Origin: Escherichia coli
Lineage (GTDB): Bacteria; Pseudomonadota; Gammaproteobacteria; Enterobacterales; Enterobacteriaceae
Reading direction: 5' to 3' (one strand)
Length of the DNA stretch: 64,000 bases
Assembly: GCF_044647545.1 (NCBI RefSeq)
Contig: NZ_CP172818.1
Shown: in pieces, positions 4,194 to 54,053 of the stretch
Layout of the letters: every line of letters begins with the position of its first letter
How positions within the stretch are numbered: position 1 is the first letter of the stretch
Notes under the pieces: model-generated
Seen by the model: the letters and a program-made list of their open reading frames with translations, nothing else
Database searches by the model: none
Told to the model about the DNA's origin: nothing
Program-made: the position numbers and the translations under genes

Positions 4194-5982
4194 GGGTATC
4201 TCCTTGGACGTCTGTGAAAGTTTTTTCGGGAATAAAGGTGACAACCACTTCGGTGCCACCTGATTCACGACGGCGGACGCGGCAATCGCCTCGTAAACTT
4301 TGCGCACGGTCGCGCATTATTATCATGCCGTAGTGATTGCTGCGGATGGCATTTTCAGGCACGCCGCAGCCGTTATCCTGGACGGTCAGTTTGACCTGAT
4401 TATCGTTTTGCGCCACCGTCACCACGACCTCACTCGCTTGCGAATGTTTGAGGGCGTTACTTAATGCCTCACGGGCAATTTGCAACAAGTGGATTGCCTG
4501 ATGCGAAGGCACCAGACGAGGCGGCAATTGATAATCCAGCTTCACCGGGAAGCCAAATTTGGCGCTGTACTCTTCGCAACTCGCCTCCAGCGCCGGACGT
4601 AATCCAGGCTCGGTGAGCTGCAAGCGGAATGTGGTGAGCAATTCACGCAACTGCGCCCAGGATGCATTCAGTTCGTTACGGATCTGACTTAACAGTTCGC
4701 GGCTGCTTTCTGGCAGCGCATCGCCCTGCATCTGTAAACAACTCACCTGCATCTTCATGCAAGAGAGAGATTGGGCAATAGAATCATGCAGTTCGCGCGC
4801 AATGGTGGCACGCTCTTCCATCACGATCAACTGTTGCTGACGTTCCTGATGCCGATCCAGCGCCAGCGTGGCGGTGAGTTGTTCAACCAGGGTATCCACC
4901 AGTTGTTGTTGATCATGGCTAAGATGACGCCCCTGCGGCAGGGTCGCCAGCAAAATACCGTACTGCGTATGAGAGTCAGCCAGCCGCCACTTCAGGGTTG
5001 TACCGCGATCGCCAACGGGTAATACGCCGCGCGGGCAGAGCTGGCAGCCTTTATCATCACAAGTCATATCTGGCTGGCAGGTAAACTCCTGATGATTCTC
5101 TTCATCATCAGTATCATAAACCCGCAGTTCGATATCACGTAGCAGGGTTAAATTCTGTAAGCCGTTGAGTACCGGTGACAGGCGTTCACACAGCGGGGCG
5201 CGGGAATGCAAACGGCGGTTAGCCTGCCATAAAAAAGAGAGGATCTGATTTTTATGCTCCAGCCCGGCAGTTTTCTCCTGAACCCGCTGCTCAAGTACGG
5301 CATAACTTTCGGCCAGTTCTGCAGACATATTGTTCAATGCAGTTCCAAGCATCGCCATTTCGTTGCGCCCGCTGATGTTTGCGCGTTGGGTAAAATCGCG
5401 ATGGCTGACGGCACTCGCCATTGCCAGCAGTTGCCGCCACGGTTGTAGCAGTCGCGCCCGCAACCAGATAATAGTGAACACCAGTAAAAGTGCCATAAAT
5501 ACCGCCATTACCCGATGGACCAGTACCACTGTCTCAATGCGCATTTCCGTGGTGCGGTCAAAACCAGATACCAGCTGATCAAGCCCGGCAACAAACTGGC
5601 TGACATCCGCTGACACCGTTTCGCGGTTTTGTGCACGCATCAGCGCAGGGATCAGTTCATTACGCCAGTAATCTTGTAAACCCTGTAATTGCGCCAGTTG
5701 TCCGTCTCGTTCCGCTGCTCGAGTCAACTCGGCGCTAAATGCCGTTTGTTCCATTTCTTTAATTAAGGGCTTGTCTTTCTCGCTTAATGGCACTGCCGCC
5801 AACAGACGGTAACTTTGCATGCGCAGTGATCCCGCTTTGTTGATCGCATGGGCGCTGCCCTGAACGCCTTGCACTAGCCAGCCAGAAACTGCCATCCCTG
5901 CCAGTCCAATAGCAGTAGAAAGCAACACAATAAGCGCAACCTGATTAACCAGGGTGAGCGGAGAGAGACAACGTTTAAGCAT
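4186..5982 (-). CDS. narX: Nitrate/nitrite sensor histidine kinase NarX (598 aa)
   Basis: 598-aa [37 protein letters not shown]... with HAMP and histidine-kinase regions; classic narXL arrangement. Confidence 0.95.
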
Positions 5983-19948: not shown

Positions 19949-19988
19949 ATAGCTTATTCTTATTAAATTGTCTTAAACCGGACAATAA

Positions 19989-20012
19989 AAAATCCCGCCG
20001 ATGGCGGGATTT
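19989..20012. terminator. Bidirectional hairpin terminator between galU and hns (serves hns on the minus strand)
   Basis: aaaaaatcccgcc-gatg-gcgggattttt: perfect stem flanked by A-run and T-run, 26 bp below the hns stop. Confidence 0.65.
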
Positions 20013-20037
20013 TTAAGCAAGTGCAATCTACAAAAGA

Positions 20038-38131: not shown

Positions 38132-38141
38132 ACAGAAAGTC

Positions 38142-38165
38142 AAAAGCCTCCGACCGGAGGCTTTT
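38142..38165. terminator. Bidirectional terminator between tonB and yciA
   Basis: aaaagcctccg-acc-ggaggctttt: perfect hairpin flanked by A4 and T4. Confidence 0.75.
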
Positions 38166-38170
38166 GATTA

Positions 38171-51077: not shown

Positions 51078-52967
51078 ATGGCAGGGAAGTTTCGCTGCAT
51101 TTTGCTGTTGATAGCAGGGCTTTTTTTCTCTTCGTTGAGTTATGCGAAAAACACGGAGATCCCTTCTTATGAAGAAGGGATCTCGCTCTTTGATGTTGAA
51201 GCCACTCTGCAACCGGATGGGGTGCTCGACATCAAAGAAAATATTCATTTTCAGGCGCGAAATCAGCAGATTAAGCACGGATTTTATCGTGATTTACCAC
51301 GACTCTGGATGCAGCCTGATGGGGACGCTGCACTGCTGAACTATCATATTGTTGGCGTCACCCGTGATGGTATTCCTGAACCCTGGCATCTTGACTGGCA
51401 TATCGGGTTAATGAGTATTGTCGTGGGCGATAAACAACGTTTCTTGCCTCAAGGCGACTATCATTATCAAATTCATTATCAGGTTAAAAATGCTTTCCTG
51501 CGTGAAGGGGATTCTGATCTGCTAATCTGGAACGTGACCGGTAACCACTGGCCGTTTGAAATTTATAAAACCCTATTTTCACTCAAGTTGCCTGATATTG
51601 CGGGTAATCCATTTAGCGAAATCGATCTCTTTACTGGAGAAGAGGGCGACACATATCGAAATGGCCGCATCCTTGAGGACGGAAGAATTGAATCCCGCGA
51701 TCCGTTTTATCGTGAAGATTTCACGGTACTCTACCGCTGGCCTCACGCTTTACTTAGCAATGCCCCGGCTCCACAAACGACGAATATTTTCAGCCATCTT
51801 CTTTTACCCTCCACGTCATCGTTGTTAATTTGGTTTCCTTGTCTATTCCTGGTTTGTGGATGGTTATATCTCTGGAAGCGCAGGCCGCAATTTACGCCGG
51901 TAGATGTGATTGAAACCGATGTCATTCCGCAAGATTACACACCCGGCATGTTACGTCTCGATGCGAAGCTGGTTTACGACGATAAAGGTTTTTGTGCCGA
52001 TATCGTAAATCTGATTGTGAAAGGAAAAATTCATCTGGAAGATCAGTATGATAAGAACCAGCAAATCCTGATTCGTGTTAATGAAGGCGCGACCAGAAAT
52101 AATGCGGTATTACTGCCCGCAGAGCAGTTATTACTGGAAGCGTTATTTCGTAAAGGCGATAAGGTCGTTCTTACGGGTAGACGCAACAGCGTCTTACGCA
52201 AGGCATTTTTACGGATGCAGAAATTTTATCTGCCGCGTAAAAAGTCTTCGTTTTACCGACCTGATGCGTTTTTGCAATGGGGCGGAATGGCAATATTGGC
52301 GGTCATTCTCTACGGTAACCTGAGTCCCGTAGGCTGGGCAGGAATGAGTCTGGTTGGCGATATGTTTATTATGATCTGCTGGCTTCTTCCTTTCTTATTT
52401 TGTTCCCTTGAGCTTTTGTTTGCCCGCGATGATGACAAGCCTTGCGTTAATCGTGTAATCATCACTTTGTTTTTACCGCTGATTTGTTCAGGCGTGGCCT
52501 TTTACTCTCTCTATATCAATGTCGGAGATGTATTCTTTTACTGGTATATGCCAGCGGGTTATTTTAGCGCTGTTTTCCTGACCGGCTATCTCACTGGCAT
52601 GGGGTATATTTTTCTGCCAAAGTTTACCCAAACTGGGCAGCAAAGTTATGCCCACGGTGAAGCTATCGTTAACTATCTTGCGCGTAAAGAGGCAGCAACA
52701 CACAGTGGGCGTCGGCGGAAAGGGGAAACACGGAAACTGGATTACGCGTTGCTAGGTTGGGCAGTCTCGGCAAACCTTGGCAGAGAATGGGCAGCACGTA
52801 TCACGCCGTCACTCACAGCGGCTGTTCGCGCCCCGGAAATTGCCCGTAGTGGCGTTTTATTCTCATTACAGACGCACCTGAGTTGCGGGGCCTATACCAG
52901 TTTGTTGGGGCGGAGCTATTCCGGTGGTGGTTCTGGCGCTGGTGGCGGAGGCGGTAGTGGCTGGTAA
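51078..52967 (+). CDS. yciQ: Membrane protein YciQ (DUF2207 family, 629 aa as read here)
   Basis: 629-aa ORF with an N-terminal signal peptide, internal hydrophobic segments and a Gly-rich C-terminal tail (GGGSGAGGGGGSGW). Confidence 0.85.
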   Translation: MAGKFRCILLLIAGLFFSSLSYAKNTEIPSYEEGISLFDVEATLQPDGVLDIKENIHFQARNQQIKHGFYRDLPRLWMQPDGDAALLNYHIVGVTRDGIPEPWHLDWHIGLMSIVVGDKQRFLPQGDYHYQIHYQVKNAFLREGDSDLLIWNVTGNHWPFEIYKTLFSLKLPDIAGNPFSEIDLFTGEEGDTYRNGRILEDGRIESRDPFYREDFTVLYRWPHALLSNAPAPQTTNIFSHLLLPSTSSLLIWFPCLFLVCGWLYLWKRRPQFTPVDVIETDVIPQDYTPGMLRLDAKLVYDDKGFCADIVNLIVKGKIHLEDQYDKNQQILIRVNEGATRNNAVLLPAEQLLLEALFRKGDKVVLTGRRNSVLRKAFLRMQKFYLPRKKSSFYRPDAFLQWGGMAILAVILYGNLSPVGWAGMSLVGDMFIMICWLLPFLFCSLELLFARDDDKPCVNRVIITLFLPLICSGVAFYSLYINVGDVFFYWYMPAGYFSAVFLTGYLTGMGYIFLPKFTQTGQQSYAHGEAIVNYLARKEAATHSGRRRKGETRKLDYALLGWAVSANLGREWAARITPSLTAAVRAPEIARSGVLFSLQTHLSCGAYTSLLGRSYSGGGSGAGGGGGSGW

Positions 52968-53177
52968 TCAAGCTGATATTAATCGAAACAAGCTTTAACC
53001 ATAAAGATAGTGTAGTATGTTGCGCCTCAAAGCCAGGCCGATAAACGTCGAGTCGTTTACTTAAGGCCTGAAGAGTTCAAACAGACTTTACTATCAGTGA
53101 GTCAGATGTAAGTTCTGACTCACTGTTGCACAAAAGCATATCAGACGCCTGGGAAGGCGACACCAAAAGGAAGCTCT

Positions 53178-54053
53178 ATGAGCGAAAAGCTACAGAAAGT
53201 GCTGGCGCGTGCCGGCCACGGCTCTCGCCGTGAAATCGAATCTATTATTGAAGCCGGTCGTGTGAGTGTTGATGGCAAAATTGCTAAACTCGGCGATCGC
53301 GTTGAAGTTACCCCTGGATTGAAAATCCGTATCGATGGTCACCTGATTTCGGTACGTGAGTCCGCTGAACAAATTTGTCGCGTTCTGGCCTATTACAAAC
53401 CGGAAGGTGAGTTGTGTACCCGTAACGATCCGGAAGGACGTCCAACGGTGTTTGACCGTCTGCCAAAACTGCGTGGCGCACGCTGGATTGCCGTGGGTCG
53501 CCTGGACGTTAACACCTGTGGTCTGCTGCTGTTCACCACCGATGGTGAACTGGCAAACCGTTTAATGCACCCAAGCCGTGAAGTTGAACGTGAATATGCC
53601 GTGCGTGTATTTGGTCAGGTTGACGACGCGAAACTGCGTGATTTGAGTCGTGGCGTGCAGTTGGAAGATGGTCCGGCAGCCTTTAAAACCATCAAGTTCA
53701 GCGGCGGCGAAGGGATCAACCAGTGGTACAACGTTACTCTGACCGAAGGCCGTAACCGTGAAGTTCGTCGTCTTTGGGAAGCGGTTGGTGTGCAGGTGAG
53801 CCGCCTGATCCGTGTTCGTTACGGTGATATCCCACTGCCAAAAGGTCTGCCACGCGGTGGCTGGACGGAGCTGGACCTCGCCCAGACTAACTATCTGCGC
53901 GAACTGGTGGAGCTACCGCCAGAAACCAGCTCTAAAGTCGCTGTAGAAAAAGACCGTCGTCGCATGAAGGCGAATCAGATTCGTCGTGCGGTGAAACGTC
54001 ACAGTCAGGTGAGCGGCGGTCGTCGTTCTGGCGGACGTAATAATAACGGTTAA
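53178..54053 (+). CDS. rluB: 23S rRNA pseudouridine(2605) synthase RluB (291 aa)
   Basis: 291-aa [45 protein letters not shown]... (S4 domain plus RsuA-type catalytic domain, Arg-rich tail). Confidence 0.95.

Follow-up and report, generated by a model that had tools for sequence, protein, structure and literature searches.

The 210-nucleotide (nt) spacer between yciQ and rluB in Escherichia coli, examined here in a 64,000-nt stretch of contig NZ_CP172818.1 (assembly GCF_044647545.1) that is referred to throughout as the window, carries a perfect inverted repeat a short distance upstream of rluB, the gene of the 23S ribosomal RNA (rRNA) pseudouridine-2605 synthase. This palindrome is well supported as the DNA image of a sense-strand RNA stem-loop in the leader of the rluB messenger RNA (mRNA), and its relatives in other genera argue for a conserved cis-acting element. 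The gene context proposed in the first-pass annotation, an earlier reading of the same DNA from its letters, is right, as the 351 nt around the site carry the yciQ and rluB annotations in E. coli genomes. The parts of the locus are as follows.

51078-52967, + strand: yciQ (DUF2207), the upstream neighbour, an accessory gene not tied to the hairpin
53013-53018, + strand: TAGTAT, candidate -10 hexamer, 8 nt 5' of the mapped start and followed by the GC-rich discriminator GTTGCGC
53026, + strand: rluB transcription start (K-12 1326700, SMRT-Cappable-seq)
53034-53070, + strand: leader hairpin 1, CAGGCC...GGCCUG, from folding prediction and a repeat finder, Escherichia-specific
53072-53089, + strand: leader hairpin 2, AGAGUU-CAAACA-GACUUU, a prediction only (minimum-free-energy and centroid structures)
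53095-53125, + strand: rluB leader hairpin, a perfect 12-base-pair (bp) stem (53095-53106 / 53114-53125) with the 7-nt loop UGUAAGU
53126-53143, + strand: single-stranded spacer after the stem, UUGCACAAAAGCAUAUCA in E. coli and UUUUU-GAAAG-UAUACC in relatives
53144-53164, + strand: deeply conserved 21-nt box GACGCCUGGGAAGGCGACACC, just 5' of the Shine-Dalgarno sequence
53167-53173, + strand: rluB Shine-Dalgarno sequence AAGGAAG, read from the sequence and ending 4 nt before the ATG at 53178
53178-54053, + strand: rluB coding sequence, the gene served by the leader

The palindrome and the rluB transcript

The two arms, CAGTGAGTCAGA (53095-53106) and TCTGACTCACTG (53114-53125), are 100% complementary across a 7-nt gap, tgtaagt, both by inspection of the sequence and by a repeat finder. 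The first-pass annotation had recognized a real palindrome and its span but counted 11 bp around a 9-nt loop, where the stem is of 12 bp and the loop of 7 nt; its distances hold, the yciQ open reading frame (ORF) ending at 52967, 128 nt 5' of the hairpin, and the rluB ATG at 53178 lying 52 nt 3' of it. Counting perfect stems of at least 12 bp that enclose 3-20 nt, the window has four inverted repeats, where 100 first-order Markov sequences matched to its dinucleotide composition predict 0.07, so that the hairpin repeat exceeds chance. Furthermore, the isolated hairpin RNA of the + strand, at 50% G+C, folds with -20.1 kcal/mol (z = -5.0 versus shuffles), and that of the - strand with -19.6 kcal/mol.

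In K-12 MG1655 the hairpin occupies 1326769-1326799 (K-12 coordinates equal window coordinates plus 1273674, as checked against K-12 records), and the surrounding 81-nt region is identical to that of the window. The arm sequence is unique within the window, and an origin as a dispersed repeat of the REP, ERIC or MITE type is out, the 81-nt region being single-copy in 3976 E. coli genomes; an ERIC origin in particular was discarded, since the alignment to an ERIC-like insert in one Klebsiella locus (L009) scores below shuffles. A search of Rfam at an E-value threshold of 10 returned only chance-level matches to eukaryotic families on the opposite strand (snoU105B, E = 0.77; mir-929, E = 7.4), and no description of the rluB leader was found in the searchable literature on yciQ, yciL or rluB combined with untranslated region (UTR), small RNA (sRNA) or cold shock.

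The remaining long repeats of the window are of other kinds. Two further perfect 12-bp repeats, at 19988-20014 and 38140-38167, are flanked by A and T runs, as in any textbook intrinsic terminator, and were used as positive controls. The fourth, a perfect 13-bp repeat with a 3-nt loop (GAGATCCCTTCT-TAT-AGAAGGGATCTC, 51156-51184), lies inside the 5' coding region of yciQ, where it spans codons 27-36 (EIPSYEEGIS); K-12, Escherichia sp. MOD1 and E. whittamii share it without change, and the yciQ of Klebsiella lacks it.

Transcript mapping places the stem-loop inside the rluB message. In Supplementary Data 1 and 2 of the SMRT-Cappable-seq study, 37 reads begin at K-12 1326700 (+) and 18 of these end at 1327761, covering b1269 (rluB) alone, and a second rluB start is listed at 1326297 (PMC6131387). 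The former start equals window position 53026, which puts the hairpin at +70 to +100 of a 152-nt leader with the AUG at +153; full-length rluB transcripts that reach the terminator at 1327761 thus read through it. Additionally, Table 1 of a MazF-regulon study reports cleavage of rluB at an ACA whose distance from the start codon is 49 nt (PMC5001579). The reported ACA fits 53130-53132, 5 nt past the stem, and a cut upstream of the AUG is an independent sign that the region belongs to the mRNA. Among the three roles offered in the first-pass annotation (protein operator, RNase III or other processing site, and 5'-UTR structure), the last is therefore the best supported, the mapped start putting the hairpin inside the rluB leader. 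The hairpin thereby combines a place in a mapped transcript upstream of an ORF with base pairs that, as detailed below, are kept by compensatory change, the two marks expected of a leader element.

The TAGTAT hexamer is kept as TAnnAT (TAGTAT, TACCAT, TACTAT, TAATAT or TAAGAT) in more than 40 distinct leaders of several genera, with GCGCC-type discriminators next to it, and on this comparison probably forms the -10 element of the rluB promoter. A conserved A/T-rich block, CTAAAATTC, lies upstream of it. The GC-rich discriminators of rRNA-type promoters are linked to stringent or growth-rate control, and the resemblance of the rluB promoter to stringently controlled promoters suggests, by analogy, that it may be regulated in that way. 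Promoters for sigma-28, sigma-32 and sigma-E were considered and dropped, the matches being partial, made by eye, and either wrongly spaced or not conserved.

Other parts of the leader are less uniform. The smaller palindrome pointed out earlier, TAAACG-N6-CGTTTA at 53042-53059, is present and nested in the predicted leader hairpin 1; alone it is unremarkable, as the same 351 nt hold nine inverted repeats of at least 6 bp. The hairpin 1 segment is not conserved outside Escherichia, its left edge (53040-53062) is polymorphic within E. coli (GAT versus AGTTA), and ETEC4068 and the metagenome locus L057 carry an 8-bp tandem duplication, TACTTAAG, within it. The 21-nt box, common to yciQ-less E. 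coli and Klebsiella, is predicted by RNAalifold to form a 5-bp hairpin of its own (53146-53150 / 53155-53159, loop GGGA). On the antisense strand, a Rho-termination region is reported in the 5' part of rluB at K-12 1326939 (-), window position ~53265 (Adams et al., PMC7815308).

Conservation of the stem and its attachment to rluB

Of 5426 complete E. coli genomes, 4917 match the 351-nt segment that surrounds the site, and 3976 carry the 81-nt hairpin region, once per genome. The yciQ-rluB spacer diverges 4-6 times more slowly than the fourfold-degenerate sites of the flanking genes: between the window and E. whittamii it differs at 9 of 209 positions, versus 74 of 267 fourfold sites in yciQ and 28 of 163 in rluB, and between the window and Escherichia sp. 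MOD1-EC7003 at 6 of 210, versus 31 of 280 and 16 of 165, respectively. Judged by these rates, the hairpin leader is under purifying selection. Lack of conservation in close relatives, which the first-pass annotation had named as grounds for giving up the element, was not found: the hairpin is kept across E. coli and two other Escherichia species, and it covaries in other genera. Four stem substitutions occur in Escherichia. In the right arm, C is replaced by T at position 10 in JJ1886, AVS0456 and ECONIH4 and at position 2 in Escherichia sp. MOD1-EC7003; in the left arm, E. whittamii has G for A at position 6; and ECONIH4 has C for T in the innermost pair. All but this last one leave a G·U pair on the + strand in place of a Watson-Crick pair.

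Beyond Escherichia, YciQ relatives of 53-57% identity hold the same yciO-yciQ-rluB position in the Klebsiella oxytoca group. A YciQ-based scan of genome contigs gave only two loci, and wider sampling came from a pattern scan of metagenomes with the conserved box GACGCCTGNGAAGGCGACACC, which yielded 120 loci with 79 distinct upstream sequences. Nearly all of these leaders carry a hairpin that ends 17-19 nt 5' of the box GACGCCUG(G/U)GAAGGCGACACC. Exact look-up of the adjacent RluB assigned leaders to Klebsiella pneumoniae, K. aerogenes, K. michiganensis, Citrobacter freundii, Leclercia, Scandinavium, Buttiauxella and Enterobacter hormaechei. The columns of the conserved box are invariant by construction, since it served as the search pattern, and hold no covariation information.

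In an alignment of 25 distinct long leaders made by plain MAFFT, the stems fall into register without structural guidance: 88.3% of cells are paired, and both sides have changed in 7 of the 12 pairs, with pair 12-41, for instance, occurring as UA (11), CG (5), GC (5) and UG (4). The covariation score is 0.372 versus 0.208 ± 0.021 in shuffles, none of 500 of which reach it, although the leaders come from a pattern-anchored metagenome scan and their kinship inflates significance based on shuffling. Moving the partner by 1-3 columns lowers pairing to 27-42%, and RNAalifold independently predicts the same helix together with a small downstream hairpin. Moreover, a covariance model built from the alignment has its sole match in the window at 53087-53164 (79.9 bits). 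The hairpin is thus well supported, on comparative grounds, as the Escherichia version of an element that appears to hold the same place in long rluB leaders of several Enterobacteriaceae genera and their relatives. In some of the metagenome contigs (L030 and L129), the conserved box is the exact point at which a leader of Escherichia type meets an rluB start of Klebsiella type, or vice versa; such joins are probably assembly chimeras, with real recombinants as a possible explanation.

The pattern of change also bears on the level at which the palindrome acts. A dimeric transcription factor could bind it as a DNA operator, or it could be a DNA-level recombination site; perfect two-fold symmetry over 12 bp downstream of a promoter is what an operator would look like, and the nearby conserved box does serve as an integration site in Klebsiella. 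Natural variants are, however, one-sided and keep the RNA pairing through G·U, and the arms covary across genera. The ten core pairs comprise 201 Watson-Crick, 36 G·U and 3 A·C cells, so that pairing reaches 94.8% on the + strand versus 81.6% on the - strand; an excess of G·U over A·C of 36 to 3 is meaningless for duplex DNA and identifies the functional molecule as sense-strand RNA. The palindrome is also not known to match any operator consensus. A role in DNA is accordingly held to be extremely improbable, and the protein operator suggested in the first pass is made unlikely by the same one-sided, G·U-type changes.

The stem-loop goes with rluB rather than with yciQ. A long leader with the promoter motif GTGTAGTATGT and the hairpin adjoins rluB in three settings of the upstream gene: with yciQ upstream, in Escherichia and the K. 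oxytoca group; with the end of yciO 360-379 nt away and no gene between, in K. michiganensis; and with yciO set apart from rluB by 1-14 kb of unrelated genes, in K. pneumoniae and others. As the same leader stands beside rluB with or without yciQ, the hairpin belongs to rluB, an ownership that was missed when the palindrome was framed as intergenic. The idea that it forms part of a yciQ gene cassette, suggested by E. coli genomes that lack yciQ, is overturned by the leaders found at rluB in the absence of yciQ.

The yciO-rluB junction is itself a hotspot of variable DNA: yciQ is found there in ~73% of complete E. coli genomes, and in other genera unrelated genes take up 0.3-14 kb between yciO and the rluB leader. 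In a K. pneumoniae-type contig (L138, 5411-9237), a 3.7-kb insert flanked by the 15-bp direct repeat GACGCCTGGGAAGGC splits the conserved box of the leader, and the same box-splitting insert is found in L032, L045, L054, L120, L123, L128 and L136; the box accordingly serves as an integration site. The insert carries split ORFs of the phage-integrase family and a YecR-like lipoprotein, and at its end it brings in a small hairpin and an outward promoter close to consensus, TTACAA-N16-TATAAT, both of which now lie 5' of rluB. In Klebsiella sp. RHBSTW-00484 (L009, ~5110-5380) and K. huaxiensis (L011), the yciQ-rluB spacer extends to 1.3 kb with an intact rluB leader, upstream of which lie a putative ERIC-type repeat, judged by eye, and an opposite-strand ORF of 87 amino acids. 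On the yciQ side, the glycine-rich C-terminal tail of YciQ, GGSGAGGGGGSGW (window 52900-52967), varies in length by strain, which accounts for much of the 94-96% identity of that region among E. coli.

Terminator likeness and function

The E. coli element has the stable stem-loop of a canonical terminator and lacks its U tract and mapped 3' ends. The stem is followed by TTGCACAAAAG, in which UUGCACAA holds 2 U in 8 nt, and a terminator scanner run on the window called no terminator at the hairpin. Term-seq in three growth conditions places the rluB 3' end at K-12 1327761 and a Rho-termination region within yciQ at 1325258 (window ~51584) (Adams et al., PMC7815308), and the TERMITe supplements contain no RNA 3' end at the hairpin. 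The earlier statement that the repeat is not a canonical intrinsic terminator therefore stands for this genome.

What that statement overlooked is the U run that follows the stem in most relatives. At least 4 U in 6 nt, typically UUUUUGAAAG, come after the stem in 19 of the 21 non-Escherichia leaders, versus UUGCAC in the four Escherichia sequences, and in many relatives an upstream AGA(A/U) is able to pair with the run. Simple terminator scans at three orthologous loci did not call the hairpin, owing to long loops and to stems that absorb U residues, and tail and discriminant scores were computed directly instead. By a discriminant with coefficients attributed to d'Aubenton-Carafa (1990), 9 of the 21 long non-Escherichia leaders and 2 of 6 short leaders score as terminators, as do both terminator controls of the window (+35 and +10), versus none of the four Escherichia leaders (scores -3 to -18, with -3.3 for the window hairpin). 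Altogether, the family resembles a weak or leaky leader terminator in some of its members, and in E. coli it does not.

These features are best accommodated by a conserved cis-acting rluB leader hairpin that descends from an attenuator-like ancestor and now acts as a pause or stability element in E. coli, a reading to which we assign a probability of roughly 0.6. The stem followed by 4-5 U in most relatives makes the ancestral element look attenuator-like; it would have damped rluB transcription as an attenuator, or leaky intrinsic terminator, standing downstream of the rluB promoter and ahead of the coding region. In Escherichia the U run would have eroded to UUGCAC while the stem became a perfect 12-mer of -19 to -20 kcal/mol. 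Since transcripts read through it, the E. coli hairpin probably no longer terminates efficiently; its likely present role is that of a self-contained cis element that would slow RNA polymerase or shield the leader and mRNA from ribonucleases.

Several observations weigh against this interpretation, in addition to the sampling and kinship of the leaders already noted. Many orthologous stems are weak (-7 to -12 kcal/mol), and 12 of the 21 orthologues fail the terminator discriminant, which leaves the ancestral terminator half supported. Attenuation was not seen in K-12, where Term-seq in the three growth conditions shows no 3' end at 13267xx or 13268xx (PMC7815308), a negative whose weight is limited by the weak expression of rluB. 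The rluB start site rests on one dataset, and no convincing -35 was found at the promoter in the window scan, the orthologous loci or the leader comparison. Furthermore, about one quarter of E. coli genomes are without this hairpin and have another, shorter leader with a hairpin of its own, which means that the element is replaceable; in the ~940 genomes without yciQ, yciO stands directly before rluB and the short-leader hairpin reads AATGGCGC-TATACG-GCGCCATT.

A different assignment would make the hairpin the 3' end of the rnm-yciO-yciQ transcript, as a weak terminator or as a stem that stops exonucleases after Rho-dependent termination. The hairpin does lie 128 nt past the yciQ stop without a U tract; Dar and Sorek are said to have found just such an anatomy, a stable stem with no U tract downstream of a gene, at processed Rho-dependent 3' ends. 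In yciQ-less genomes, moreover, the equivalent hairpin stands ~45 nt past the yciO stop, a typical terminator position. Such a role is nevertheless unlikely, because no Term-seq 3' end falls at the hairpin and the mapped Rho region lies inside yciQ, at 1325258, because the rluB start lies 5' of the hairpin and full-length rluB transcripts contain it, and because the same stem-loop occurs beside rluB under quite different upstream genes; K. michiganensis even has a separate terminator-like hairpin before the rluB promoter.

Control of rluB translation through access to the Shine-Dalgarno sequence or start codon, for instance by a thermometer or switch, would suit a hairpin placed in the 5' UTR 52 nt from the AUG, and in some genera the right arm, CUCGUUG, is by eye complementary to the start region, CAAUGAG. 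K. michiganensis lacks that pairing and E. coli has only a weak form of it, and a right-arm/start-codon switch, being present in some genera only, was rejected. In silico, the accessibility of the Shine-Dalgarno sequence and AUG is 0.58 in the wild type, 0.57 and 0.54 with single arms disrupted and 0.58 in the double mutant; the near-constancy disfavours occlusion of the ribosome-binding site, and the translational effect by such masking raised in the first-pass annotation finds no support. The chance that the hairpin works in this way is accordingly small. A start-stop mini-ORF in the loop (AUG-UAA) was also set aside, as its stop is lost in E. whittamii (TAC) and it has no Shine-Dalgarno sequence, and inspection found no leader peptide common to the Escherichia, Klebsiella and Enterobacter-type leaders.

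RNase III substrates typically comprise about two helical turns, roughly at least 20 bp of near-continuous duplex. The perfect 12-bp duplex in an mRNA leader invites comparison with them, as a site for RNase III or another double-strand-specific processing enzyme, but it is too short and no coaxial extension is predicted, and the stems of the orthologues are of weak energy, with bulges and G·U pairs. The processing site suggested in the first pass is on this length criterion very unlikely.

There is also slight room for a protein-binding RNA operator, for example one in which RluB binds a stem resembling helix 93 of 23S rRNA, with G-U-U at its 3' base, and so regulates its own synthesis. The base of the stem is conserved in sequence, C9-G44, A10-U43, G15-C38 and the next U being invariant in the 25 leaders, and in K. 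michiganensis it reads GAAC...GUUU versus GAAC...GUUC in helix 93; co-crystal work on RluB and RluF reportedly established that RluB accepts a minimal helix-93 stem-loop as substrate. Smith-Waterman comparison of the leader with the rrlH 23S rRNA, however, put none of the six best matches at helix 93 (2588-2606), with a best local score of 19 versus a shuffle mean of 20.6. Moreover, GAAC...GUU is confined to leaders of the Klebsiella michiganensis/oxytoca type, E. coli having UAUC...GUUG, a G followed by U residues is expected of any terminator-like stem, and two pseudouridine-mapping studies report no RluB-dependent site in mRNA. Mimicry of helix 93 by sequence was consequently rejected as evidence and kept only as an idea of low probability.

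Known counterparts and significance

Conserved attenuators in the leaders of rnk, rimP and greA were reportedly catalogued by Naville and Gautheret in 2010. Like these enterobacterial elements, the rluB hairpin is a stem-loop between promoter and start codon that covaries across genera, has a U run in most relatives and precedes a gene that belongs to the translation and RNA machinery. Unlike them, it has no U run or mapped 3' end in E. coli, only 9 of the 21 orthologues score as terminators, and no antiterminator, leader peptide, sensing partner or Rfam match was found for the leader.

A second group of counterparts are the 5' hairpins of the ompA type, which extend the lifetime of mRNA; hairpins are also said, by Richards and Belasco in 2019, to block scanning by RNase E. 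As predicted by folding, the rluB stem-loop would resemble such protective elements in being stable and self-contained, in sitting in a long leader and in leaving the ribosome-binding site untouched, and it differs from those of the ompA type in not being at the 5' end, from which it is 70 nt away. The processed 3'-end stem-loops of Rho-terminated transcripts (Dar and Sorek 2018; PMC6061677) are reportedly likewise stable and without a U tract, and the hairpin is downstream of the Rho-terminated yciQ. It departs from them in having no mapped 3' end and in lying inside the rluB transcript.

Autogenous operators that mimic rRNA are a further precedent, known for the ribosomal proteins S4, S8 and L20 and accompanied by the translational autoregulation of KsgA. 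RluB is an rRNA-binding enzyme with an S4 domain, and the conserved stem base ends in G-U-U, as in such operators; unlike them, the rluB hairpin has no significant similarity to helix 93, and binding by RluB is only a candidate. To our knowledge, almost nothing is known about the regulation of bacterial rRNA-modifying enzymes. In this light, the leader as a whole, with its promoter and GC-rich discriminator, hairpin and U run, and invariant GACGCCUGNGAAGGCGACACC box, might constitute an undescribed regulatory RNA through which an rRNA-modifying enzyme is made in step with ribosome assembly. The hairpin, with its helix-93-like G-U-U stem base, would then be bound by RluB or another assembly factor, which would thereby set the level of termination or decay, a proposal that we regard as a long shot.

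Taken together, the comparative evidence points to a conserved cis-acting leader stem-loop that probably descends from a leader attenuator. If the hairpin only trims expression constitutively, the finding is routine. The rluB leader is nonetheless compact and strongly conserved: behind a promoter whose discriminator is of the stringent type come a hairpin that covaries and a 21-nt box that does not vary, and the leader stays by rluB despite the gene-insertion hotspot next door. For annotation, an intergenic palindrome moves from the tail of yciQ to the leader of rluB, which becomes a candidate new RNA family for curation and a defined target for experiments.

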